NCBI GenBank assembly: GCA_016792845.1
Contig: JAEUKH010000018.1
Location: 74,984 to 138,983 of the forward strand
DNA: 64,000 nt
Origin: Myxococcales bacterium
Lineage (GTDB): Bacteria > Myxococcota_A > Polyangia > Polyangiales > Ga0077539
Direction of reading: 5' to 3'
Position 1 is the first letter of the stretch. Every line of letters begins with the position of its first letter. The translations under genes were made by a program, and so were the position numbers. Of the stretch, positions 19,778 through 59,533 are shown piece by piece. The notes under the pieces were generated by a model. It made no database searches. It was not told the origin of the DNA and saw only the letters and a list, made by a program, of their open reading frames with translations.

Positions 19778-21514
19778 TCATCGCGGAGGCAAGATCACGT
19801 ACGGGTACACCAGCGTCTGAGAGGGCTGACGAAACCGCGGGAAGCGCGCCCGACGTACCACCCCTTCGATGCACTCTGCCACCGGGGTGCCCGAAAATTG
19901 CCCCGAGACGCTGGCGTTCGAGACCGAACCCTCGTTCGAGATGGTCAACGAGACCGGCGCCGTGCCAGTTTGGCCGTTGGCGCAGCTCCGCACAGCGCCA
20001 TTCAACCCCCCGAGGACGCTCGTGACCTGCGCGCGGGTCAAGCGCTCGGGCAGCGCCTCGGCCGGAGCCGCCGCCGGGGCCGCCGCCTGAGGCCCAGGGG
20101 CCACGCGGTTCATCAAATCGTCGACCGAGTTGCCGCCCCCTCGCGCCGGTGCCGGGGTCGGAGCGGGTGCCGCCGCGGGTGCCGCCGCGGGTGCCGCCGC
20201 GGGTGCCGGGCGCGCCGCCGGAGCCGGTGCCGCCGCCGCCGCCGCTGGAGCCTGAGCGGGCGCGGGTGCCGCCGCCGGAGCCGGTCGGGGCGCAGCCGCG
20301 GGGGTCGCCGTCGGCGCGCTCGGCCCTGCCGCCACGCGGGCCCGGGTCGGTGCCGCCGTGCGGCTCTCAGCGTGGGAGTTGGCCACCACCGCGGGCGCCG
20401 CGGGCGCTGCCGGGGGCGCGGGAGGCTCCACAGGTGCCGCCATCGCTTGGGCCGTCGGCGCCGCCACGGGCTCGGGGCTCGGAGCGGGCTCGGGGCTCGG
20501 AGCGGGCGCATTGCTGGGTGCAGACTCGGCCTCGGCGCGCGCCGGGTCAGCCGACGCGCCGGTCGGCGCCGCGGGCGCTGCGGGTGCGACGGTCGATGTA
20601 CCTTCGGGTTGGGCCGCCGAGGGCTGCGCGTTGGTGTTTGCCGGAGCCTCGACCGACGAGGCCGCGGTGGGCGACGCGTCGCGGGTCTGGTTGTAGATCA
20701 AGAAGGCCGCCGCGGTGACCACCACGCCGCCGATCATGCCCATGAAGCCGCCGCCCTTTCGGGCAGGCTCGGCCTCGACCGCCGCGGCCCGGGTCGCCGC
20801 TGCGGGCGCCGCTGCGGCCTTGGGCTTCACCATCACGTCGTCGGTCTTGGCGGGCTTCTTGTCGGCCTTGGCCTCGGGCTTCTTCTCGTCGGCCTTCTTC
20901 TCGCTCTTGGCCTCGCTCTTGGCCTCGCTCTTGGCCTCAGCCTTGGGCTCGGCCTTCGGCGCCTCGACCTTCTCGGCCGTCGGAGCCGGAACCGAAGCGC
21001 GCGACAACGCGGCGAGGCTCTTGATGTCAACGATGCCCGAGCTGGTCTCATCGACCTCGTCGGTGATCGACGGACCCACCGAGCGAGGGGCCGTCGTCGG
21101 CAAGGCCCCGGGACCGATGCTCGTCCGCGTGAGGGCCGTCAGGGCCGCGAGGTCATCGTCGTTGTCGTGGGACTCGCTCATGGTCAAATCTTTCTCCATC
21201 ACGGTATTTACCGGGTCTTCATCCAAAAATTTCGGAGCCGCAAAGACGTCGAGCGCGTCACCATCAACACCGCCGCGCGGCTTGACCTTGGCCTGCGGCT
21301 GCGCGAGCGCCGCGACAATTTTCTCGATCGACGCTTCACCGCGCTCGGCCCGGCGAGGCCAACCCTTCAACCCGCGCTCGAGCGCATAGAGGCCCTCAAG
21401 AAAGGCCTTCGCACCGGGTTCATCTTCGAGGGCGCGCATCACCTCGGGGTCTGCGGGCCCATCGGCCGGCAGATCAAGGCTGGCTGCGATCCGTCGTTGA
21501 AGCTCATCGTCCAC
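19778..21514 (-). CDS. Putative anti-sigma factor or membrane protein paired with the ECF sigma: cytoplasmic N-terminal part, one TM helix, Pro/Ala-rich linker and a Cys-containing C-terminal domain
   Basis: It lies immediately downstream of and overlapping the ECF sigma gene. TM segment 'GGGFMGMIGGVVVTAAAFLIY'. Very long PA-rich low-complexity stretch. C-terminal globular domain with two Cys. Start is uncertain (GTG 21514 or ATG 21439). Confidence 0.55.
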   Translation of the reverse strand: MDDELQRRIAASLDLPADGPADPEVMRALEDEPGAKAFLEGLYALERGLKGWPRRAERGEASIEKIVAALAQPQAKVKPRGGVDGDALDVFAAPKFLDEDPVNTVMEKDLTMSESHDNDDDLAALTALTRTSIGPGALPTTAPRSVGPSITDEVDETSSGIVDIKSLAALSRASVPAPTAEKVEAPKAEPKAEAKSEAKSEAKSEKKADEKKPEAKADKKPAKTDDVMVKPKAAAAPAAATRAAAVEAEPARKGGGFMGMIGGVVVTAAAFLIYNQTRDASPTAASSVEAPANTNAQPSAAQPEGTSTVAPAAPAAPTGASADPARAEAESAPSNAPAPSPEPAPSPEPVAAPTAQAMAAPVEPPAPPAAPAAPAVVANSHAESRTAAPTRARVAAGPSAPTATPAAAPRPAPAAAPAPAQAPAAAAAAPAPAARPAPAAAPAAAPAAAPAPTPAPARGGGNSVDDLMNRVAPGPQAAAPAAAPAEALPERLTRAQVTSVLGGLNGAVRSCANGQTGTAPVSLTISNEGSVSNASVSGQFSGTPVAECIEGVVRRARFPRFRQPSQTLVYPYVILPPR

Positions 21515-22118
21515 GCGATCCTCCAGCCGTCTCGGGCGCTTCAAGGCCAGAGAGCACTGCGTCGGGCAACGCCTCGCGGAGCCGACGCCGCGCCTCGTGA
21601 ACACGCCACGCTACGGTGCCTTCGCTACAACCCAGGATCCCGGCAATGTCTTTGTAAGGAATCTGCTCGACGCACGCGAGCACCACCGTCGTGCGCAGCG
21701 ACTCGCTCAGCGAATCAAGCGCTTCGGCCAACCTGCGGTACGACTGCGCCTGCTCAGACGATTGCGCCGGGTCACTCCCCTCGGCCGCCGGCTCGGGCAG
21801 CCGCGGGTCATCGATGTCAGCCGTGACCCGCTTGCGCTGCCGCCGGAGGTTCAACGACACGTTGACACAGATGCGGTAGAGCCAGGTAAACAGATCGGCG
21901 CGACCGTCGAATCGGTCGATGGCGCGAAAGGCCCGCAAGAAGGTCTCTTGGGTCACGTCGTCGGCGTCGCCCGCGTTGCCGGTGAGCTGCACGGCGAGGC
22001 GGTACACGCGGCGGTGGTGCTTCCGAACGAGCTGCCCGAAGGCGGCCTGGTCGCCTTGGCGGGCACGGTCGAGCCACTGTTTCTCGTGTTGGTCGGAGCG
22101 ATCGTCCGGGGTGGTCAT
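21504..22118 (-). CDS. ECF (sigma-70 family group 4) RNA polymerase sigma factor
   Basis: Region 2 '[35 protein letters not shown]...[10 protein letters not shown]'. Region 4 '[30 protein letters not shown]'. Confidence 0.9.
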
Positions 22119-22345: not shown

Positions 22346-23281
22346 ATGCCCACCCCCACCGACCTCGCGGCCGACATTGTTCGCCTGAAAAAAGAACGCA
22401 ACGCGGTGCTCCTCGCGCACTACTACGTCGACGGCGAGGTGCAAGACGTCGCTGATTTTGTAGGCGATTCGTTGCAGCTCTCGCAGGCCGCGCAGAAGAC
22501 CCAGGCCGACGTGATCGTCTTCGCGGGGGTTCACTTCATGGCCGAGACGGCCAAGATCTTGAACCCGAGCCGCAAGGTGGTCTTGCCCGACCTCGACGCG
22601 GGCTGCTCGCTCGCCGAGGGCTGCCCGGGCGACAAATTCGCGGCCTTCACCGCGCGCCACCCCGACCACTACGTGCTCTCGTACATCAACTGCTCGGCCG
22701 AGGTGAAGGCGCTCTCAGACTGCATCGTCACCAGCTCGAACGCCGAGAAGATCGTGCGAAGTGTGCCCGAAGGGCGGCCCATCATCTTCGCCCCTGACAA
22801 GAACCTCGGGGCCTACCTCGCCCGCAAGACGGGCCGCGACATGCTGATGTGGCGCGGCAGCTGCATCGTCCACGAGACCTTCTCAGAGCGGAAGATCATC
22901 GCCCTCCAGACCCGGCACCCCGACGCCGAGCTCATCGCGCACCCCGAGTGCGAGCCCGCGATCCTGGCGCACGCCCGCTTCATCGGCTCGACCAGCGCGC
23001 TCTTGAAATACACCCAGACCGCCGCGGCCAGGCGCTTCATCGTGGCCACCGAGACGGGCATCCTTCACCAGATGAAGAAATCGTCGCCCGACAAAGAGTT
23101 CATCGCCGCGCCCCCCGACGCGAACTGCGCCTGCAACGACTGCCCGTTCATGAAGAAGAACAGCCTCGAAGCCGTGCACCGCGCGCTCGAAACGCTCGAG
23201 CCCGAGCTCACCCTCGACGAGGGGCTCCGCGTGAAGGCCCTTCGCCCCATCGAGCGGATGCTGGAGCTCTCAGCGAGCTGA
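22346..23281 (+). CDS. nadA: Quinolinate synthase NadA
   Basis: '[42 protein letters not shown]' and '[11 protein letters not shown]' Fe-S cysteines. ATG at 22346 follows a low-complexity 5' extension. Confidence 0.9.
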
Positions 23282-23848
23282 GCCGCGCACGCCCCGGGCG
23301 CTGGCCTCGACCACGGCCCGCTCGGGGTTCGCGATGACCTCGCGCCCCACCAGGCGCCCCTCGCCCGCGGCCTCTGCCCCCGCCTCGACCGCCGCCTCGA
23401 CGTCAGAGAGCGCGCCGGTCAGCACGACGTAGCCCTTGCCCCCGATGCCCCGCGCGAGGTGCATGTCGACCAGGCTCACGGCGGCACACTTCAGCGCCGC
23501 ATCGGCCGCGCGGATGGTGGCCGCGAGGGTCTCAAGCTCGAGCACGCCGACCGAGCCCTCGGGGCGCGAGCGCACGAGGCCCTCGCAGAGCGCCCGCATC
23601 ACCGCCTCGTGGGCGTACGCGAGGTAGGTGTGGTCGATGCGCGAGGCGTCGCTCACGGTGATGGCCGCGTCGAGCGCTTCTTCGATCTCGGCCTCGCCGC
23701 CGGCGAAGGCGATCCAGTAGCGGCCCGGGGTGATCGGCTCGGCGTAGAGCACCGTGACCGGGCTGCGCTTGTCGAGCGCATCGAGCACGAGGTACCCCCT
23801 CGCAATCGACGCAATCTCTACAATCGCCAAGGCCGGCCCGTCGCTCAC
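23270..23848 (-). CDS. Bacterial microcompartment shell protein, tandem BMC-domain type (BMC-T)
   Basis: Two PF00936-like halves: '[26 protein letters not shown]...[21 protein letters not shown]' and '[28 protein letters not shown]...[28 protein letters not shown]'. Compare PduA 'GDVGAVKAATDAGAAAA'. Confidence 0.75.
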
Positions 23849-23928
23849 AGAAACTCTCTCGGCGGTACCACGCCCCGCCCGACGGGCACAAGCGCGCGTG
23901 TGCCCGTGCTACACCTTCGGCGCCTCTC

Positions 23929-24432
23929 ATGAACATCGTCTGTGAGCGTTGTCGCCTCCAAGATGCGCGCTTCGCGGCTGGCTCGCCCTGCCCGCGCTGC
24001 GGGGCCCCGATGCGGGCCTGGCCTGCGCCCTTCGGCCAAGGGGCACCGACGCAGGCCCCCGCCCAGGCGGTGACCCAGGCCGTCGACCCGCGGCTCGTGG
24101 CGGCGGTCGCACAAGGCCAGTGGCCCGGCACCGACCCCGCGCCGCACCGCCCACCGCATCAACACACGGCGCACCCGATCAACGCGGTGAAGCTCGGGGC
24201 CGACGCGATGGCCTCGGTGGTCTTGAGCCTCGCCGCGACGGTGCTCTGTTGCGCCAACGTCGTCGCCCTTTGGGCGCTCGTCACCAGCGTCAGGGCGTAC
24301 CTCGCCACCAACAGCGACGACCTCGCGCGGGCCGAGGGGCTCTGCCGTCAGGCGCGGCGCCGGAGCCGGGTCGGGGCCTTCTTCAGCGCGCTCTATCTGG
24401 GCGCCATTGTGGTCTATTACTTCTTCGGGTGA
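23929..24432 (+). CDS. Hypothetical protein: N-terminal double CxxC zinc-ribbon plus two C-terminal TM helices
   Basis: 'CERCRLQD...CPRCGAPM' and the hydrophobic C-terminus 'ASVVLSLAATVLCCANVVALWALV...ALYLGAIVVYYFFG'. Divergent from the BMC-T gene. Confidence 0.4.
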   Translation: MNIVCERCRLQDARFAAGSPCPRCGAPMRAWPAPFGQGAPTQAPAQAVTQAVDPRLVAAVAQGQWPGTDPAPHRPPHQHTAHPINAVKLGADAMASVVLSLAATVLCCANVVALWALVTSVRAYLATNSDDLARAEGLCRQARRRSRVGAFFSALYLGAIVVYYFFG

Positions 24433-24441
24433 AGCGCACCG

Positions 24442-25842
24442 ATGCACTCGTCTACTGCGCGCCTTGAGGCGCTCGTCGCGGCCTTCGGCTCCGACCTCAT
24501 CAGCACCGACCCCTCAGACCTCATCGAACTCGGCCGCGATTGGACGCGGGTGCACACCCCCGCCCCGCTCGCCATCGCGCTCCCGCGGAGCGCCGCCGAG
24601 GTCGCCGCGCTCATGCGCTTCTGCGACGCCCACGACCTCAAGGTGGTGCCCTCGGGCGGGCGCACGGGCCTCGCGGCGGGCGCCGTGGCGGCCTCGGGCG
24701 AACTGGTGATCTCGCTCTCTCGCATGCGCGCGATGGCTCCGGTCGACCGCCTGGGCAACACGGTGCGGGTCGAGGCCGGCGCCGTCACCGCGGCGGTGCA
24801 CGCCCACTGCGCCGAGGTCGGCCTCACCTGGCCGGTCGATTTCGCCTCCAAGGGCTCGTCGCAGGTCGGCGGCAACATCGCCACCAACGCCGGCGGCGTG
24901 AAGGTGATCCGCTACGGCCTCACCCGAAACTGGGTCTTGGGCCTCGAAGTGGTCACCGCCCAGGGCGAAATTCTCTCGCTCAACGGGGCGCTTGAGAAGA
25001 ACAACACCGGCACCGACCTCAGGCAGCTCTTCATCGGCAGCGAAGGGACCCTCGGCATCATCACCGCGGCCACGCTGAAGCTCGTGGCCCTGCCGCGCCG
25101 TCACGACGTGATGATCTTCGCGGTGCCCGACGTCGCCGCGGTGGTGCGGCTCTTCCGCGCCGTGCGCGAGGCGCCCATGGTGCTCTCGGCCTTCGAGTTC
25201 TTCAGCGAGGCGTGCAGGCTCCGGGTCGAGCGGCACCGCCACCTTCGGCCGCCCTTCGACGGGCGCTACGCGTACTATGTGCTCGTCGAGTTTGAGAACA
25301 GCGACCGCGACGCCGTCGAGACCTGGGCCGCCGGGCTCTTCGAGGGCGACCTCGTCGAAGACGGCGTGGTGGCCCAAGACGCCTCGCAAGGGGCCGCGTT
25401 CTGGGCCCTCCGCGAGTCGATCTCTGAGAGCCTGTCAGGCACGGGCTTCCCTTACAAGAATGACATCGCGCTGCCCATCGCGGGGCTCGAGGCCTTCGTC
25501 GACGCGCTCGAGGCGCTCCTCCTGCGCGGGTACCCGGCCTTCGAGGTGTGCCTCTTCGGGCACCTCGGCGACGGCAACCTCCACGTCAACCTGATGAAGC
25601 CCGACGCGATGTCGCGCGAGGCCTTCATCGCCGCCGCGAAGGTCTGCGATCAGAGCATGTTCGCCCTGGTCGAGGCCCACCGCGGGAGCGTCTCGGCCGA
25701 GCACGGCATCGGGCTCTTGAAGCGTGACGCCTTGCGCTTCTCGCGAAGCCCGGCCGAGCTGGCGATGCTGCGCGCGGTGAAGCGCGCCCTCGACCCGAAG
25801 AACCTCTTGAACCCCGGCAAGGTCTTCGACCTCGATCAGTAG
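24442..25842 (+). CDS. FAD-linked oxidase (GlcD / D-lactate / D-2-hydroxyglutarate dehydrogenase family)
   Basis: FAD_binding_4 region ('VVPSGGRTGLAAGAV', 'GGNIATNAGG'). C-terminal FAD-oxidase_C region 'SAEHGIGLLKRDAL'. Confidence 0.85.
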   Translation: MHSSTARLEALVAAFGSDLISTDPSDLIELGRDWTRVHTPAPLAIALPRSAAEVAALMRFCDAHDLKVVPSGGRTGLAAGAVAASGELVISLSRMRAMAPVDRLGNTVRVEAGAVTAAVHAHCAEVGLTWPVDFASKGSSQVGGNIATNAGGVKVIRYGLTRNWVLGLEVVTAQGEILSLNGALEKNNTGTDLRQLFIGSEGTLGIITAATLKLVALPRRHDVMIFAVPDVAAVVRLFRAVREAPMVLSAFEFFSEACRLRVERHRHLRPPFDGRYAYYVLVEFENSDRDAVETWAAGLFEGDLVEDGVVAQDASQGAAFWALRESISESLSGTGFPYKNDIALPIAGLEAFVDALEALLLRGYPAFEVCLFGHLGDGNLHVNLMKPDAMSREAFIAAAKVCDQSMFALVEAHRGSVSAEHGIGLLKRDALRFSRSPAELAMLRAVKRALDPKNLLNPGKVFDLDQ

Positions 25843-27062
25843 GTCGTGCGGGTGCGAATGCTCGTGGGCAGCGCGCTCATGGCCTGACGCACGGCCTCTG
25901 AGACGTCTTTTTCGAGGTCCATGATGAGGTACCCGATGTTGGCGTCGGTGCCGAGCACCTGGGCGTGGATGTTGGCGTCGAGGTCGCTCACGATGCGGTT
26001 GATGTCGCGCAAGACGCCCGGCACATTGCGGTGAACGTTGATGACCCGGTGCGTGCCCACGCTGCGCCCGAGCTCAATCTGGGGGAAGTTGACCGCGCCC
26101 ACGGTGCTGCCAAAATCGAGGTACCGAATGAGGCTCGTGGCCACCTCGCGACCGATCGAGGCTTGGGCCTCCGCGGTCGAGCCGCCGATGTGCGGCGTCA
26201 GAATCACGTTCGGCGCGTTCTGAAGCGCCGTCACGAACCCGCGCCCGTTCGCCTCGGGCTCCTCAGGGAAGACGTCGACCGCGGCCCCGCCGAGCTTGCC
26301 CTCGCGCAAGATCTGACCGAGCGCCTCGATGTCGACCACGGTGCCCCGCGACGCGTTGAGGAGCGAGGCCCCGTTCTTCATCTTCGCCAGCTCGCTAGGC
26401 CCCATCATGCCGCGGGTCTGCGGCGTCTCGGGCACATGGAGGGTCACAAAATCGCTCTGTTCGAGCAGCGCTTCGAGGCTCTCAAGCGGCCGGTTGTTGC
26501 CCATCGGGAGCCGCGTCGCCACGTCGTAGAAGACCACCCGCATGCCCATGGCCTCGGCGAGCACCCCCACCTGCGAGCCGATGTGACCGTAGCCCACGAT
26601 GCCGAGGGTCTTGCCGCGCACCTCGACCGAGCCCGTGGCCACCTTCTTCCACTCGCCGGTGTGCATCTCTCGAATGCGGTCGCCGAGCTGACGGGCCAGC
26701 ATCACCACCTCGGCGATGATGAGCTCGGCCACGCTGCGGGTGTTGCTAAACGGCGCGTTGAACACCGGCACCCCGCGCGCGTTGGCCACGCCGAGATCGA
26801 CCTGGTTGGTGCCGATACAAAAACACCCGAGGGCCAAGAGGTCGTTCGCCTCCGAGAGCGCCGACGCCGTCACCCGGGTCTTCGAGCGGATGCCAAGAAT
26901 GTGAACCCCGCGGAGCTTCTCGCGCAGCGCCTCCTCGCCGAGGGCCCCCGAGAGCGCCTCGACCTCGCACCCCGCCGCGCGAAACATCTCGTGCGCCGAG
27001 GGGTGGATGTTTTCGAGCAAGAGCACCCGCAACGCGCCCAAATTACCTTGAGAACCGCTCAT
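25836..27062 (-). CDS. serA: D-3-phosphoglycerate dehydrogenase (SerA) with C-terminal ACT domain
   Basis: NAD-binding 'GKTLGIVGYGHIGSQVG'. Catalytic 'NASRG..VD'. C-terminal ACT region. ATG at 27062 follows an Arg/Gly-rich shadow extension. The 3' end overlaps the convergent GlcD-like gene by 7 nt. Confidence 0.9.
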   Translation of the reverse strand: MSGSQGNLGALRVLLLENIHPSAHEMFRAAGCEVEALSGALGEEALREKLRGVHILGIRSKTRVTASALSEANDLLALGCFCIGTNQVDLGVANARGVPVFNAPFSNTRSVAELIIAEVVMLARQLGDRIREMHTGEWKKVATGSVEVRGKTLGIVGYGHIGSQVGVLAEAMGMRVVFYDVATRLPMGNNRPLESLEALLEQSDFVTLHVPETPQTRGMMGPSELAKMKNGASLLNASRGTVVDIEALGQILREGKLGGAAVDVFPEEPEANGRGFVTALQNAPNVILTPHIGGSTAEAQASIGREVATSLIRYLDFGSTVGAVNFPQIELGRSVGTHRVINVHRNVPGVLRDINRIVSDLDANIHAQVLGTDANIGYLIMDLEKDVSEAVRQAMSALPTSIRTRTTY

Positions 27063-53461: not shown

Positions 53462-53707
53462 CTACGGCACGAGGGCGATGCAGTGGTAGATGCCGCGGCG
53501 GAGGGTGCAGCGGTTCGACCCGCCGCCGCGACGCATGGCCTCGATGCGGCGTTGGGGCTGGCAGCTTCGGGTGATGGTGGGGGGGCTGCGATCCATCGGG
53601 GTGCCCGAGCCGCGTCGAAAGATCACCGCGACGCGCCCCGGCGGGCAGTCAGGCCAGGCCCACAGGGTGCTCGGCACGAGGCAGAGGGCGAGCCAGGCGA
53701 GCCTCAC
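53462..53707 (-). CDS. Small secreted Cys-containing protein (~81 aa). GTG start overlaps the NMO stop (GTGA).
   Basis: 'VRLAWLALCLVPSTLWAWP' signal-like N-terminus. Four Cys. It lies within a longer track ORF whose upstream part is NMO antisense. Confidence 0.3.
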   Translation of the reverse strand: MRLAWLALCLVPSTLWAWPDCPPGRVAVIFRRGSGTPMDRSPPTITRSCQPQRRIEAMRRGGGSNRCTLRRGIYHCIALVP

Positions 53708-54663
53708 AGCCCGGCCCCGGGGATGCCCCGCACCGTGTCGACGTACTCGCGAATGAGGTCGTCGACGATCTCGCCGATGGGCTTGATCTCTTTGGCGAGG
53801 GCGACCCCTTGACCGGCGCTCCAGATGTCGCGCCAGCGCTTCGAGGCGCCGCCCTCGATGGCCTTCTGCACGGCCGCTTGCACGGCGGCCTTGTCGGCCC
53901 CGGGGGCGTCTTCGAGCCCGGGGATGGTCTCTCGCAGAAAGTTGGCGTGAACGCCGCTCACGGCGTCGGTGTAGACGATGGCCTCGGGGTTCGAGTTGAC
54001 CGTAAGGGCCTTGTAGCGCGGCTCGGCCCCGCACTCGGTCGAGGCGATGAAGCGCGTGCCCATGTACGCGAGCTCTGCCCCGAGGGTGAGGGCCGCCGCG
54101 ACCTGACGCCCGGTGGCGATGCAACCCGCTGCGATCACAGGTACTTTCAGGTGCTCGCGGAGGTACGGGTACAGCACGAAGGGTGAGGTCGAGCCCGCGT
54201 GGCCGCCGGCCCCCGCGGCGACGCCGATGATGCCGTCGGCCCCGGCCTCTTGCGCCTTGAGGGCGTGCTTGAGGTTGATCACGTCGTGAAAGACGGTGAC
54301 GCCCTTCTCGTGGGCGCGGCGCGCGAGCTCGGTGGGGTTGCCGTAGCTGGTGATGATCACGGGCACCCGCGCGTCGAGGCAGGCCTCGAAGTCTTGCTCA
54401 AGGCGCTCGGGCTCGGTCAAGCGGATGGTGAGGTTGATCGCGAAGGGGCGATCGGTGCGCGCGCGGATGAAGTCGAGGGCCTCGCGAAACTGCGCGTGGG
54501 TGCGGAGATTCAGCGAGGGCATCGAGCCGAGGATGCCGGCCTCGGCGGCGGCCACGATCATCTCTTTGTTCGAGATCAAGAACATCGGCGCGCACACCAC
54601 CGGGAAGCGCAGCCCCAGCTTCTTCGAGAGCGCGGTCTGGATCGTAGGCAAGCTCGTGGTCAT
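53704..54663 (-). CDS. Nitronate monooxygenase (2-nitropropane dioxygenase family, FMN-dependent)
   Basis: 'FPVVCAPMFLISNKEMIVAAAEAGILG', 'GADGIIGVAAGAGGHAG', 'VPVIAAGCIATGRQVAAALTLGAE'. ATG at 54663. Confidence 0.85.
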   Translation of the reverse strand: MTTSLPTIQTALSKKLGLRFPVVCAPMFLISNKEMIVAAAEAGILGSMPSLNLRTHAQFREALDFIRARTDRPFAINLTIRLTEPERLEQDFEACLDARVPVIITSYGNPTELARRAHEKGVTVFHDVINLKHALKAQEAGADGIIGVAAGAGGHAGSTSPFVLYPYLREHLKVPVIAAGCIATGRQVAAALTLGAELAYMGTRFIASTECGAEPRYKALTVNSNPEAIVYTDAVSGVHANFLRETIPGLEDAPGADKAAVQAAVQKAIEGGASKRWRDIWSAGQGVALAKEIKPIGEIVDDLIREYVDTVRGIPGAGL

Positions 54664-54871
54664 CGTCGGCTCATGGGCAGAGGGTTGCGAGGTGCGCGGG
54701 CGCCGAGAGTAGGCGCGAACGCGATCGACTTCATAGACTCTCGTGTCACTTCTTCGAGCCTCGCCGCGCGGCACGGGGGCGGCGCCCGAGGGGGTGCGGA
54801 GGGGCCCTTCGGCCGAGGGCGAGGGCGCGCAGCGAGCGCGAGGGGTGCTATGGGTGGGTCGGAGGCGAGCA

Positions 54872-55774
54872 GTGAGCGATTCAACGGTCTTTCGGGTGCG
54901 GGTTGACGGTCGGCCGCGTGACCTCGGCGGCTTCTCGGTGACCCGGGTGTTGCCGGCGATGGGGTGCAGGGCCGTGGGGCCGTTTGTGTTCCTCGATGAG
55001 ATGGGGCCGGCGGTGTTCGCGGCGGGCAAGGGCATCGATGTGAGGCCGCACCCGCACATCGGGTTGAGCACCGTGTCGTTCTTGTTTGAGGGTGAAATTG
55101 TGCACCGTGACAGCCTCGGGGTGAAGAAATCGATCACCCCCGGCGCGGTGAATTTGATGACCGCCGGGCGGGGCGTCACACACTCCGAGCGCAGCAGCGA
55201 GGCCGCCCGCGCCGCGGGGCAACGCTTGCACGGGTTGCAGTTCTGGGTAGCCCTTCGGCAGGAGCACGAAGACGACGCGCCGGGCTTCTGGCACTACCCC
55301 GCGAGCGAGATCCCGAAGGGCGAGGTCGCCCCGGGCGTCGAGGCCACTGTGGTGGTGGGCGAAGCCGCGGCGATGCGCTCGCCCGTGGTGCACCCCAGCG
55401 AGCCCCTCTTGGTGATCTTCGACATGGCCCCCGGGGCGGTGATGGTGTTGCCCGCACGCCCGCTCGAGCTCGCCCTCACCGTGGTCGACGGCGCCGTCGA
55501 GGTCAACGGCGAGGCCCTCGCGCCGCATACCTTGGGCGTCCTCTACGACGACCGTGAGGTCACCGTGCGCGCCTGCGAGCCCTCGCGCGTCGCCCTCTTC
55601 GGCGGCCCCCACCTCGACGGCCCTCGCTTCATCGAGTGGAACTTCGTCGCCACCACCCAGGCCCGCATCGAGGCCGCCAAGACCCGCTGGCGCGCCCGCG
55701 AGTTCGCCCCCGTGCCGGGCGACGAGGTCGAGTTCATCCCCCTGCCCGAGGCGGGCCCTCAGACGGGCCACTAG
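54872..55774 (+). CDS. Pirin-family protein (cupin)
   Basis: GGAGG RBS 7 nt before GTG. 'GPFVFLDEMGP', 'HPHIGLSTVSFLFEGEIVHRDSLG', 'LMTAGRGVTHSE' conserved pirin blocks. Confidence 0.85.
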   Translation: MSDSTVFRVRVDGRPRDLGGFSVTRVLPAMGCRAVGPFVFLDEMGPAVFAAGKGIDVRPHPHIGLSTVSFLFEGEIVHRDSLGVKKSITPGAVNLMTAGRGVTHSERSSEAARAAGQRLHGLQFWVALRQEHEDDAPGFWHYPASEIPKGEVAPGVEATVVVGEAAAMRSPVVHPSEPLLVIFDMAPGAVMVLPARPLELALTVVDGAVEVNGEALAPHTLGVLYDDREVTVRACEPSRVALFGGPHLDGPRFIEWNFVATTQARIEAAKTRWRAREFAPVPGDEVEFIPLPEAGPQTGH

Positions 55775-57212
55775 CCCGACGTCGCACCACCGCGGGGACG
55801 CCGCCCCGAGGCCGAAGCGTCGCAAAATTGTCGACCACGATCTCGCGCCCGGGGTCGACCTCGAAGTGCCACCGCCGCAAGAGCGTCGCCAACACCAAGG
55901 GCCCTTCGAGCATCGCGAAGTGCGCCCCGATGCAGAACCGAGGCCCGGCGCTAAACGGCAAATAGGCAGCCTTGGGCCGCTCGGCCTCGCGCTCGGGCAA
56001 CCAACGATCAGGGTCAAACCGCTCAGGCTCGGGGTAGAGACTCTCGCGGTAGTGCATCGCGTAGATGCTCACGAACACCAGGGCCCGCGGAGGCAGAGAA
56101 ACACCTGCGATTTCAACGGCTTCGAGCGTCCGCCGGGGCATCATCATCAGCGGCGGGTAGAGCCTCAGGGCCTCTTTGAACACCCGGGTGCAGAACGCGA
56201 GGCGCTCGGGCTGCCAGGCGGTGATGGGGCCCTCACCGAAGGCCAGGGCCTCGTCGACGGCCCGGGCCATGAGCTCGGGGTTTCGTGAGAGGAGGTAGAA
56301 CGACCACGCGAGCGCCGTCGCGGTGGTCTCGTGGCCCGCGACGAAGAGCGTCACGGCCTCGTGTCGCACCTGGGCGTCGCTCATCGATTCGCCGCTGCCG
56401 TCAGGGTCTTTCGCCGTGAGGAGCCGCGTCAGAAGGTCGTTGCGCGTAAACCCGTGCCGCCGACGCTCGTCGATCATGCCCTGGATGCGCTCTTCGAGCA
56501 CCCGCACCGCCGCGCGCAGCTTCGGGTCGCGCGAGGTCGGCAAGAGGAAGGGCGAGGCGAAGCGCGCGTGCAGCGATTGGAGCGCGCGACGCGGACGCCC
56601 GGCGGTCGCCGACGCGAGGCTCGCGGTGGCGTCGAGGGCCAGCACATGGGCCACGAGGCCCAGGCTCGTGAGGTTGTCGTTGACCCACGCGAGGCAGGTG
56701 GTGAGCGCCTCGCCGAGCGCGTCGGCCTCGTCAAAGGTGTCGACGTCGAAGAGCGATTTGCCCACCACCGACATCGCGATGCGGGTGGTCTCGTGGGCCA
56801 GGTCGATGGCCTGCCCCTCATGCATGCGCGAGGCCGCGTGCTCGGCCACGAGGCGCATGGTGTCGGCGTATTGGTGAATCGGCGCGGGCTGAAAGAGCGG
56901 CGCCATCATCTTGCGTTGGCTCCGCCAGAGCGCCCCCTCGGCGGTAAACAAGCCCTGCCCCGCGAGGTCGTTGAGGAGCACCCGAAGCCCCGGCGACTTC
57001 TCAAAGCTCCGCGCCTTGCCCACCAGCACCTCGTGCACCGCCTCAGGCGTACACGGGAAGTACACCGGCAGATGCAGAATGCGGCCGCGCACCAGCGGCT
57101 CTCGGGCCTGGGCGAGGCGACGCTGAAACGCGAGGCGTTCGAGGGTCGTGGGGCCAAAACTGCCGAACAAGCCCGCGTCAGGGAGCCTCGGCAACGCGCT
57201 CAGACTGGTCAT
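55734..57212 (-). CDS. Cytochrome P450
   Basis: I-helix 'AGHETTA'. 'EALRLYPP' (ExxR). Heme loop 'FSAGPRFCIGAHFA'. ATG at 57212. ATGA overlap with the upstream gene. Confidence 0.9.
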   Translation of the reverse strand: MTSLSALPRLPDAGLFGSFGPTTLERLAFQRRLAQAREPLVRGRILHLPVYFPCTPEAVHEVLVGKARSFEKSPGLRVLLNDLAGQGLFTAEGALWRSQRKMMAPLFQPAPIHQYADTMRLVAEHAASRMHEGQAIDLAHETTRIAMSVVGKSLFDVDTFDEADALGEALTTCLAWVNDNLTSLGLVAHVLALDATASLASATAGRPRRALQSLHARFASPFLLPTSRDPKLRAAVRVLEERIQGMIDERRRHGFTRNDLLTRLLTAKDPDGSGESMSDAQVRHEAVTLFVAGHETTATALAWSFYLLSRNPELMARAVDEALAFGEGPITAWQPERLAFCTRVFKEALRLYPPLMMMPRRTLEAVEIAGVSLPPRALVFVSIYAMHYRESLYPEPERFDPDRWLPEREAERPKAAYLPFSAGPRFCIGAHFAMLEGPLVLATLLRRWHFEVDPGREIVVDNFATLRPRGGVPAVVRRRASGPSEGPPRAGG

Positions 57213-59533
57213 CGCGGAGCCGAGGGTACACCCATCGACGACGCCCGAGCGCGCCCCTCGCGGTCGATTCGGTCGCACCAGTCGGCGGCCACGTCGCGCA
57301 GCCCCTGCGGGCGCTCGGGGTCTGCGGCGAGGGCCTCGAAGTCAGCCCGGGCCCGAGGCATTTGCCAGAGATGCCAGTAGCTCGTGCCGCGGATGCGGCG
57401 CGCCTCGGCGCGCACCCGGGGGTCTTCGAGTCGGGCGAGGGTCGCGTCGTCGAGGAGCGCCACCGCGGCCCCGAAGCGCTCGGTGAGAAAGAGCTGCCGC
57501 GCGACGAGGTAGGTCGCCACCGGGTCGCCGGTCGCGCACCGCGCGCGCTCAAGGCCCACCGCAGCGGCCACCGTCGACGCATCGACCGCGCCCCGGCCCA
57601 CGAGGAGGTCGGCCACGGCCTCGGCCAGGAGCCCGCCTCGGCCGAGGGCGCGGCGCTTCAACGAGAGGGTGCGGGCCTCGTCTTCGTCGAGTTGGGCGAC
57701 GGCGATGGCGTTGTACCGCGCGAGGGCCTCGTCGCCCTCACCGTAGCGCCAGACCGCGTCGGCGACGGCGCTCCGGATGCGCTGCCCCGCCGCGGGTCCG
57801 AGCGCCTCAGCCGCCCTCGTCGCGATCTGGTCGGCCTCGGCGAGCTGCCCGCGGCGCACCCGCACGAGGGCGGCGCCGGTGCGGGCCCTGAGGTCGGTGG
57901 GGTCGCGCGCTTGCAGCACCTCGAAGCCCGCGGCGGCCTCGGCGAGCGCGCCCGCGTGCAGCTGCCGCACCGACTGCTCAGAGAGGTCTTCGAGCGCGAA
58001 GGGGCACTCGCGACCGAAGATGCTCGCCCGACGAAAGCGCGTCTGCGCGCGCACGAGCACCCGCTCGGGGGTCTCGACGGTGCGCAAGAACCGATGCCAC
58101 TCAGCTTCGAGGGCGGGCAACGAGGCGCCGTAGACGCCCTCAAAATCGGCCGTCGCGTACAGGCGCTGAAACCGCGCGACGCCGCGGGTGTCGTGGAGCC
58201 AGCGGCAAAACGATCCCGCGGCGGTGTACGCCGTGGCGCTCGCAGACATGAAGAACGCCAGCGACGCCAGCGACGAGACCCGCGGCGCGAGGCCCGCTTC
58301 GAGCATCGCGCGCGACCACTGGTGGGGTGAGCTGTCGCCGCCGTCGCCCTCCCACGCCGCGGCCACGGCGGCCCCTTCGATGAGCCCCGGCACCGGGAGC
58401 CACCGCCCGCGCATGGTGACCCGAAACGGGCCCGACGCCATCGCGCCGGCCACCACATGCGCCAGCTCGTGCTTCAACACCGGGTGCGGAAAGGGCGCAT
58501 ACTGAAGGTACACCTCGCGCCTCCATGGCTTCGCGATGTACGTGTCGGCGGCCCCCATGAGCGCCGCCTTCTGGGCGCTCGACGCGAAGAGAAACACCGT
58601 GATCGGCGCCGCAACGCGCACGCCGTAGAAGTCTTCGAGCTGCGCCACCCTGAGCGCGCAGTCGCGCGCCGTGAGCCACGCCTGCCGCGGGTCGAGGGTG
58701 CGGTCGTAGCGGACGACGCAGCGCCCCGAGGCCGTACTCGCGCCGAGTCGAGAGGCGACCGTCTCAGCGTCGAGGCGGTGCCCGAGCGCAGGCCCCGCGA
58801 GGTACACCCCAAGGCCCAAGGCGAGCCCCGCGAGGCCCGAGACGAGGGTGCCGAGGGTGACGCCTCGCCAGCCCGCTTGCGGCGCCCCGCGAGGCCCCCT
58901 CAGGGCGAGCCTGAGGGCGTGCCCGAGGGCCGCCGCGGCCACGACCCATCCGAGGGTGCCGAGGCGGTAGCTCACCAGGGTCAGACCGACGGGCACACGC
59001 TCGTCGTAGAGGGCCCCCGGGTAGAAGCCGAAGAAGGGATCGTAGGCGAACACGCCGGGGGTTCCGTAGAAGCGCGCGAGGCTCCACACGATGGTCGCCA
59101 GCGGCATGAGGGCGGCGAGCGCCGTCGCCCATCGCGGCCTCTCGATCGCGACCCCCAACGCGTAGCCGAGGAGCCCCGCGAGCACCGCCCCGGGGAGGGG
59201 GATCAGCAGCACGAAGCGCGCCCCCCCGGCGGGCCCGCAGGCCGGCGCCACAAGGCCCCGCGCGAGCACCACCAGGGTCGGCAGCGCCACCCAGAAGAGG
59301 CCCATGAGGGCGGCGACCGCGGGCGAGGTCGGCTGCGCGTGTGCGCGTCGCCCGAGCGCGGCGCCGGTGATCGCGCTCAGCGTGCTCGCGTAGAGCGCCA
59401 CCAAGAGCGAGGCGCCGTAGCCGACGTGGTCTGTGAGGTGGTTGCCCCAACAGAACACGCCGAGCAAAACCCCGAGACCCAGCCCCACCCGCGTACGCCA
59501 CCACGACAGCACCATCGGGCCAAGCGGTAGCAC
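57209..59533 (-). CDS. Membrane protein with an HEXXH metallopeptidase-like motif and a TPR-like C-terminal region. Translationally coupled to the P450 gene.
   Basis: About 8 N-terminal TM helices. 'LKHELAHVVAGAMA'. C-terminal Ala/Arg-rich helical repeats. Confidence 0.65.
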   Translation of the reverse strand: MLPLGPMVLSWWRTRVGLGLGVLLGVFCWGNHLTDHVGYGASLLVALYASTLSAITGAALGRRAHAQPTSPAVAALMGLFWVALPTLVVLARGLVAPACGPAGGARFVLLIPLPGAVLAGLLGYALGVAIERPRWATALAALMPLATIVWSLARFYGTPGVFAYDPFFGFYPGALYDERVPVGLTLVSYRLGTLGWVVAAAALGHALRLALRGPRGAPQAGWRGVTLGTLVSGLAGLALGLGVYLAGPALGHRLDAETVASRLGASTASGRCVVRYDRTLDPRQAWLTARDCALRVAQLEDFYGVRVAAPITVFLFASSAQKAALMGAADTYIAKPWRREVYLQYAPFPHPVLKHELAHVVAGAMASGPFRVTMRGRWLPVPGLIEGAAVAAAWEGDGGDSSPHQWSRAMLEAGLAPRVSSLASLAFFMSASATAYTAAGSFCRWLHDTRGVARFQRLYATADFEGVYGASLPALEAEWHRFLRTVETPERVLVRAQTRFRRASIFGRECPFALEDLSEQSVRQLHAGALAEAAAGFEVLQARDPTDLRARTGAALVRVRRGQLAEADQIATRAAEALGPAAGQRIRSAVADAVWRYGEGDEALARYNAIAVAQLDEDEARTLSLKRRALGRGGLLAEAVADLLVGRGAVDASTVAAAVGLERARCATGDPVATYLVARQLFLTERFGAAVALLDDATLARLEDPRVRAEARRIRGTSYWHLWQMPRARADFEALAADPERPQGLRDVAADWCDRIDREGRARASSMGVPSAPR

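Follow-up and report, generated by a model that had tools for sequence, protein, structure and literature searches.

Within the window, by which we mean the whole 64-kb stretch of DNA that was analysed, one gene encodes a shell protein of bacterial microcompartments (BMC) with two domains in tandem, here called Ts. Very probably this gene is an unexceptional satellite belonging to a kind of organelle that is already known, the HO-type BMC, the remaining shell genes of which would be found elsewhere in the same genome. The simplest reading of the sequence comparisons is that one ancestral operon was split at two points, between AldDh and Ts and between BMC-P and AldDh, within one uncultured Polyangiales clade, and the window organism appears to carry the form of the split that lies between AldDh and Ts. 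The features of the locus are collected in Table 1.

Table 1. Features of the Ts locus, numbered along the whole window.
Feature	Position	Strand	Basis or remark
ECF sigma factor gene	21504..22118	-	Pfam Sigma70_r2/r4_2/ECF; second marker of the presumed ancestral downstream flank
nadA (quinolinate synthase)	22346..23281	+	PF02445, E 1e-119; marker of the presumed ancestral downstream flank
BMC-Ts gene, 192 aa, GTG start	23270..23848	-	Two non-permuted tandem BMC domains; orthologue of Hoch_5812
BMC domain 2, aa 99-175, PduA/CcmK-like half, with K120	23324..23554	-	Pfam best stretch
Domain 2 pore loop, R133-G-I-G-G-K-G139	23432..23452	-	Conservation
BMC domain 1, aa 5-89, with edge lysine K27	23582..23836	-	Secondary structure of the model and conservation
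Domain 1 pore loop, P38-I-T40-P-G-R43	23720..23737	-	Alignments to 5DIH, 5DII, and the PduT C38S mutant
Divergent intergenic region, 80 bp, between Ts and the zinc-ribbon ORF	23849..23928	.	Putative promoter site of Ts
Zinc-ribbon/CD225-like small membrane ORF	23929..24432	+	Divergent from the Ts gene
GlcD-like FAD oxidase	24442..25842	+	
serA	25836..27062	-	

Results

Identity, Fold, and Start Site of Ts

An earlier note, made from the letters alone, had described the product as a 192-aa protein with two tandem BMC domains and had named a PF00936 profile search as the check. The ORF is present as described, and the search was significant: Pfam found two PF00936 stretches (E 1.2e-30), with 105.7 bits against a cutoff of 24.5. 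The GC3 of the ORF, 0.89, is typical for genuine genes of the window. The likeness of the second half to PduA and CcmK was also borne out, since this half gave the best Pfam stretch, spanning the full profile (1-75/75), and matched the BMC-H proteins CcmK, PduA, EutM, and CsoS1 at E values from 1e-7 to 1e-3. The top match of Ts among solved structures was the H. ochraceum protein HO-5812 (5DIH, E 2e-28), followed by PduT (3N79, 3PAC).

An AlphaFold2 monomer model of Ts, built from 26 homologues (pLDDT 92.1, pTM 0.88), contains two beta-alpha-beta-beta-alpha-beta units. In domain 1 the modelled strands cover residues 6-12, 32-38, 44-50, and 70-76, and the helices residues 15-28, 52-69, and 81-89. 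Foldseek aligned the model to 5DIH and to 6N06, which is BMC-T1 in the assembled shell, with TM-scores of 0.85-0.86, an rmsd of 1.7 Å, and 42-43% identity. A PII-like or other fold, which the note had given as grounds for abandoning its reading, is contradicted by the two PF00936 domains, by the confidence of the model, and by the Foldseek match to 5DIH. With two non-permuted PF00936 domains in a single chain that falls within ~180-210 aa, the Ts product is a single-layer tandem BMC-T (BMC-Ts).

The public gene calls (P0001, 172 aa) begin 20 codons later than the GTG at 23848. Such a start would cut off the conserved first beta-strand GPALAIVEI (window 23789-23848), and the alignment of homologues supports the 192-aa start, which we preferred for that reason; the 172-aa start is likely a systematic misannotation, judging from the sequences compared. 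An exact-sequence look-up of the 192-aa product gave no match, because the public calls use the start 20 codons downstream. No paper was found in a full-text literature search for 'Hoch_5812'.

Surroundings of the Ts Gene in the Window

The BMC-H, BMC-P, BMC-Tdp, and BMC AldDh proteins of a complete locus (L006) were used as phmmer --max queries against all stop-to-stop ORFs of at least 30 aa, in six frames, over the whole window. The scan struck the Ts ORF alone and everything else scored no better than E 0.2; no other BMC-H, BMC-P, BMC-Tdp, or BMC AldDh was thus found in the 64 kb. The note's statement that no other shell gene lies within at least 20 kb of Ts stands; any such gene would have to lie beyond 23 kb in one direction and beyond 40 kb in the other. 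PF00936 is represented in the 64 kb by the Ts gene alone, and PF03319 by none. By Pfam, about 45 ORFs of the window are ordinary chromosomal or housekeeping genes, with annotations for Tex, an O-methyltransferase, TerC, an SNF2 helicase, a TPR peptidase, a GAF+HD response regulator, a TonB-like protein, UDPGP, DsbA, a VWA protein, pantothenate kinase, TetR, UvrD, a radical SAM protein, YebC, Lon, a P450, pirin, nitronate monooxygenase, the ECF sigma/anti-sigma pair, nadA, a GlcD-like oxidase, and serA. A cluster at 53704-57341, with a nitronate monooxygenase-like gene, pirin on the opposite strand, and a cytochrome P450, has no relation to Ts; the stop-to-stop frames overlap there by ~550 bp.

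The flanking genes named in the note (nadA, the zinc-ribbon membrane ORF, the GlcD-like gene, and serA) were all recovered by coordinates and Pfam. The nadA and Ts genes overlap convergently at their 3' ends by 12 bp. Since Ts is convergent with nadA and divergent from the zinc-ribbon ORF, it would have to be transcribed alone, and we infer that its promoter sits in the 80-bp intergenic region. A purine-rich GAGAGAG lies 7-13 nt ahead of the GTG of Ts. No match to the E. coli sigma-70 consensus was found in the 80 bp, a scan that is uninformative here because this consensus finds about zero matches even in shuffled sequence of 70% GC.

The zinc-ribbon ORF encodes 167 aa (140 aa in public calls), with an N-terminal CxxC...CxxC and a C-terminal membrane part, and its CD225/interferon-induced transmembrane match is weak (E 8e-5, below cutoff). 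It is divergent from Ts in two Ts-only lineages, at 27-31% identity, and missing in the lineages with AldDh and Ts. On the other side, the ECF sigma gene is followed by a gene of 608 aa (19778-21604, minus strand) that has no Pfam match and carries long low-complexity stretches rich in Ala, Pro, and Lys. It is presumably the anti-sigma factor; its place beside the ECF gene is kept across many Polyangiales loci, at just 30-71% identity.

Related Loci and Operon Fission

Homologues of Ts numbered 442 at E <1e-5 among 3,872 candidates scored, almost all from Myxococcota metagenome bins, and genomic context was compared across ~170 related loci. A scan of species-representative genomes with Ts returned 80 loci, the best match being 71% identical. 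Three classes of context were distinguished by tblastn, and reduced contexts were counted only where the flank was long enough. In the canonical class, ~50 loci including that of Hyalangium versicolor, the operon reads Tdp-H-P-AldDh-Ts, and relatives of Ts with 41-62% identity hold its last slot, after AldDh. The same canonical order was found in most metagenome loci and corresponds to Hoch_5816 through Hoch_5812 of H. ochraceum, in which we take Hoch_5813 to be the AldDh. An example is L006, a Polyangiales MAG with a Ts of 61% identity, where BMC-Tdp, BMC-H, BMC-P, AldDh, and BMC-Ts are followed by nadA 9 kb downstream. The window protein belongs to this HO Ts lineage. In the second class, AldDh and Ts occur together (L008, L009, L010, L016, L017, L029, L047), and the 4-10 kb of available upstream flank lack Tdp, H, and P. 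The third class has Ts only (L011, L014, L015, L020-L023, L025, L032, L041, L001-L003, and the window).

When a neighbour-joining tree was built from Ts, the loci of the second and third classes all fell in one clade. This split clade adjoins the canonical Polyangiales loci L006, L026, L027, and L042, with the canonical L018 outside. Because the split loci form one clade beside canonical loci, the lone Ts state is derived from the operon state. The flanks tell where each part stayed: nadA and then the ECF sigma gene lie 3-9 kb downstream of Ts in the canonical Polyangiales loci L006, L018, L026, and L027, the order Ts-nadA-ECF-antisigma is the same in canonical and split loci, and the upstream BKACE/ECH/carboxyltransferase flank stays with the Tdp-H-P half. 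Among the Ts-only relatives, the arrangement of ECF sigma and nadA convergent with Ts, small ORF, GlcD, and serA is kept in P0001 (99-100% identity) and in P0005 (71%), and in neither does another shell gene lie within 10 kb of Ts.

A functional tie of Ts to nadA, GlcD, or serA was considered and rejected: nadA and the ECF gene are an inherited flank and the GlcD/serA side is a new junction. The position of nadA in the canonical loci marks it as a flank marker and not as a functional partner.

The closest relatives of Ts outside the myxobacteria (36-43% identity) were in L084 and L085 (Vibrio sp.), L066 (Planctomycetota), and L035 (a Coxiellaceae MAG). All four lie near BMC-H and BMC-P, and those of L066, L084, and L085 also near AldDh. 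The same Ts lineage is thus present in shell loci outside Myxococcota.

Complementary Halves and a Putative Main Locus

Scanning metagenomes with the Tdp of L006 gave mostly canonical operons, with complementary halves among the closest matches. The 210-kb contig L092 and L090 carry Tdp-H-P without AldDh or Ts; in L091 the set is Tdp-H-P-AldDh, and 10 kb of sequence there hold no Ts. The Tdp of L092 was then the query of a protein search followed by context look-ups. In two MAGs the halves were found on separate contigs. MAG JAWKRB01 has Tdp-H-P (P0141) on JAWKRB010000011 and AldDh with Ts (L008) on JAWKRB010000014. In MAG CAYUSB01, contig CAYUSB010000020 (P0158) reads BKACE-ECH-carboxyltransferase, then Tdp-H-P-AldDh, then unrelated genes, and CAYUSB010000019 (L011) reads serA-GlcD-zinc ribbon-Ts-nadA-ECF, which is the synteny of the window, with a Ts that is 71% identical. 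Run SRR8863431 likewise contains both halves, Tdp-H-P-AldDh and a Ts locus of the window type.

A further Tdp context, P0135, reads BKACE-ECH-carboxyltransferase, Tdp-H-P, a 409-aa gene, a 596-aa gene on the opposite strand, and AldDh, with no Ts after AldDh. The Ts of the window (P0001, 99-100% identical) occurs in 10 Logan runs, and all seven runs listed for P0135 (SRR29844862, SRR29844867, SRR29844875, SRR10555725, SRR12425352, SRR12425353, and SRR12425364) are among them. The GC content of the putative main-locus contigs is 0.69-0.70, compared with ~0.70 for the window, and no overlap was found when these contigs were compared with the 64-kb window by blastn.

The AldDh of the putative main locus L170, which lies outside the window, has 481 aa and matches PF00171 at E 1e-36. 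Its N-terminus, MRPNDPRVDEIVALVVDRLKKQG, is followed by a linker and looks, by inspection, like an amphipathic encapsulation peptide. This AldDh shares 87% identity with the CAYUSB enzyme, 82-85% with the AldDh proteins adjacent to Ts in the second class, and 74-76% with those of canonical Polyangiales; the Tdp of L170 shows 89-91% identity within the split loci and 84-87% when compared with canonical ones. The affinities of AldDh and Tdp thus show the same grouping as Ts. L170, L187, and L168 each showed a single BMC-P and a single Tdp, while HO shells are described with three BMC-P.

Taken together, the separate halves in CAYUSB01 and JAWKRB01 and the co-occurrence in seven of the seven listed runs uphold the earlier proposal that the gene is a satellite BMC-T. 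We are fairly confident that the window organism carries a main locus of the L170 type and that Ts is a shell component of that locus. The link for the window organism is made through bins of sister MAGs, which can be chimeric, and through run co-occurrence rather than through one contig, and co-occurring contigs could in principle derive from two related organisms; a main locus in the window organism's own genome is what we infer from them.

In L170 (11320-14336; also L171-L174 and L176), the 409-aa gene on the operon strand and the 596-aa gene on the opposite strand lie between BMC-P and AldDh. Neither has a Pfam match and both are missing from all other HO loci examined; they would represent an insertion particular to this lineage, or else a new gene for an accessory factor or for cargo. 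An unusual neighbourhood was seen in L168 (11351-15789, JAWKRB01) and L169 (11388-15878, JAXLYH01), where Tdp-H-P is followed on the same strand by mreC-mreD-PBP2-rodA.

Conservation of Satellite Copies and Other Readings of the Lone Gene

The edge lysines K27 and K120 are invariant in 68 family members. G134, I135, G136, G137, and K138, as well as P41-G42, are kept in satellite and main-locus copies alike, and all family-invariant residues are present in the window Ts. In a column-by-column comparison of 22 split-clade with 46 canonical Ts sequences, the split clade kept nearly every family-conserved position and was relaxed at only one. The dN/dS of close satellite pairs is 0.07-0.23, against 0.06-0.33 for main-locus pairs; we disregarded the values for distant pairs (window against others, 0.23-0.58), since at a GC3 of ~0.9 their dS is saturated or biased. 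The reading frame of Ts is intact in more than 20 independent split-clade lineages. The satellite copies of Ts are still under purifying selection.

That selection, together with a lone context kept across several lineages, the lack of any further shell gene in 64 kb, and the 12-bp overlap with nadA, might also be expected of a true orphan, a BMC-T that outlived the loss of the other shell genes and took on a microcompartment-independent role as a scaffold, as a former of sheets or tubes, or in NAD synthesis beside nadA. We regard this as quite improbable. Complementary Tdp-H-P(-AldDh) loci occur in the same MAGs and in all seven listed runs that hold the window Ts, the edge lysines and pore loops are conserved equally to those of main-locus copies, and the adjacency of nadA was inherited from loci in which it already lay downstream of Ts.

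The pore loops bear on a second reading, in which Ts would be a PduT/EutT-type electron conduit with a [4Fe-4S] cluster at the trimer pore that passes electrons across the shell. Ts is similar to PduT over its full length (3N79, E 9e-28; TIGR02526, E 5e-30), and its loops I-x-P-G-K/R-Y and GIGGKG are similar to the PduT loops. However, T40 aligns with the cluster-binding Cys38 of PduT and with Ser56 of HO BMC-T1, and none of the 68 family members has anything but Ser or Thr at position 40, so that a native Fe-S centre is not expected. The full-length alignment to TIGR02526 scored 104.4 bits against an equivalog cutoff of 250.3, and HO BMC-T1 itself needed an engineered S56C to bind a cluster (5DII, by its PDB title). 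Lacking a pore cysteine, the Fe-S reading was ruled out, and we give it hardly any credence. A decaying remnant of the broken operon, no longer expressed or useful, is just as hard to credit, for although Ts is cut off from its operon and the 80 bp upstream show no recognisable sigma-70 promoter, the intact frames, the low dN/dS, the GC3, and the retained family-invariant residues led us to reject a pseudogene.

Discussion

The reading that we prefer is that Ts is a BMC-Ts tile, of the PduT-like clade, of an HO-type aldehyde-oxidising metabolosome. Three copies of Ts would form a pseudohexamer that takes hexagon positions in the facets beside BMC-H hexamers, and the central pore of the trimer would be lined by T40-P41-G42 and G136-G137-K138. 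The shell would enclose an acylating AldDh that bears an encapsulation peptide at its N-terminus. That Ts trimerises and is built into the shell is suggested by analogy, from the H. ochraceum shell structures 5V74 and 6N06 and the catalogue; the conservation of K27 and K120 and the fold match of the model, which is of a monomer only, to 6N06 are consistent with trimer tiling. Ancestrally, Ts would have been the last cistron of Tdp-H-P-AldDh-Ts. A rearrangement would have broken this operon in one uncultured Polyangiales clade, in the window lineage between AldDh and Ts. Ts would have stayed at the nadA and ECF sigma/anti-sigma flank as a monocistronic satellite, and Tdp-H-P...AldDh would have stayed at the BKACE/ECH/carboxyltransferase flank, elsewhere in the chromosome.

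HO BMC-T1 (Hoch_5812; 5DIH, 6N06) is the closest known protein. Both have two tandem non-permuted PF00936 domains in ~190-205 aa, it is the best match in sequence and structure (TM 0.86), its relatives hold the same last operon slot after AldDh, and both have Ser or Thr for Cys at the pore. In contrast, Hoch_5812 stands in the main locus and the window Ts is a single-gene satellite beside nadA, and the corner motif of the window Ts is I-A-N-P-E/D rather than I-A-R-P. In the catalogue, Hoch_5816 appears under HO-T2 (main) and Hoch_5812 under HO-T1 (main) (Sutter 2021, PMC8217296). Of the three genes that the note had named for comparison, Ts is an orthologue of the single-layer, PduT-like Hoch_5812, and not of the satellite Hoch_3341 or of Hoch_5816, both of them double-stacking Tdp proteins. 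With PduT/EutT-like proteins (3N79, 3PAC; TIGR02526) Ts shares the tandem-BMC fold, the length, and similar pore-loop motifs, but it lacks the cluster-ligating Cys and is of the HO type, not PDU.

The HO-type BMCs comprise 41 catalogued loci with a shell set of one H, three P, two Tdp, and one Ts; their conserved enzyme, an AldDh, bears an encapsulation peptide at its N-terminus, and a class II aldolase is often present as well (PMC8217296). The view that the cargo of this class is undescribed is thus too sweeping, although it holds for the substrate (PMC8217296). Sugar-phosphate or nucleic-acid catabolism has been suggested for the organelle (Sutter 2021, PMC8217296). Satellite BMC loci have been described (Axen 2014, PMC4207490; Sutter 2021, PMC8217296), and the window locus is like them in having a shell gene only, with a main H and P locus that is distal in sister MAGs. 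HO Ts genes have already been flagged '(sat)' in Archangium gephyra (A0A2W5SVI9) and in Deltaproteobacteria ADurb.Bin058 (A0A1V6H4U5) (PMC8217296), and the origin of the HO type I satellite by fission of the main locus was described in Sutter 2021 (PMC8217296). In the main text of that work, the HO fission concerns two BMC-P and the aldolase, whereas the break of the window lineage lies between AldDh and Ts; in sister lineages it lies between P and AldDh, and the split is common to the whole uncultured Polyangiales clade, unlike the HO fission in Sutter 2021. HO-type BMCs, satellite loci, fission as their origin, and satellite HO Ts genes are therefore already known. Added here are the orthology to BMC-T1 and not to the Tdp satellites, a clade-wide split with two breakpoints, and the retention of the nadA/ECF flank by Ts.

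The result for Ts leaves the substrate of the HO organelle unrevealed. The 409-aa and 596-aa genes of the putative main locus may encode cargo or accessory factors of a new kind, and if this were true they might hint at the substrate of the HO microcompartment. Separate transcription of satellite shell genes has been proposed as a way in which shell composition may be tuned (Sutter 2021, PMC8217296). It is conceivable, if rather unlikely, that the repeated splitting of the HO operon is functional, with Ts (in sister lineages AldDh and Ts) uncoupled so that shell composition or permeability can be set independently. Taken alone the finding has little weight; its use is as a rule for annotation and as a minor point of evolution. 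It documents one uncultured Polyangiales clade in which the model HO operon was split at two points with all of its parts still under selection, and by that rule a lone BMC-domain gene in a myxobacterium would be read as a dispersed part of an HO-type microcompartment and not as an orphan of new function.
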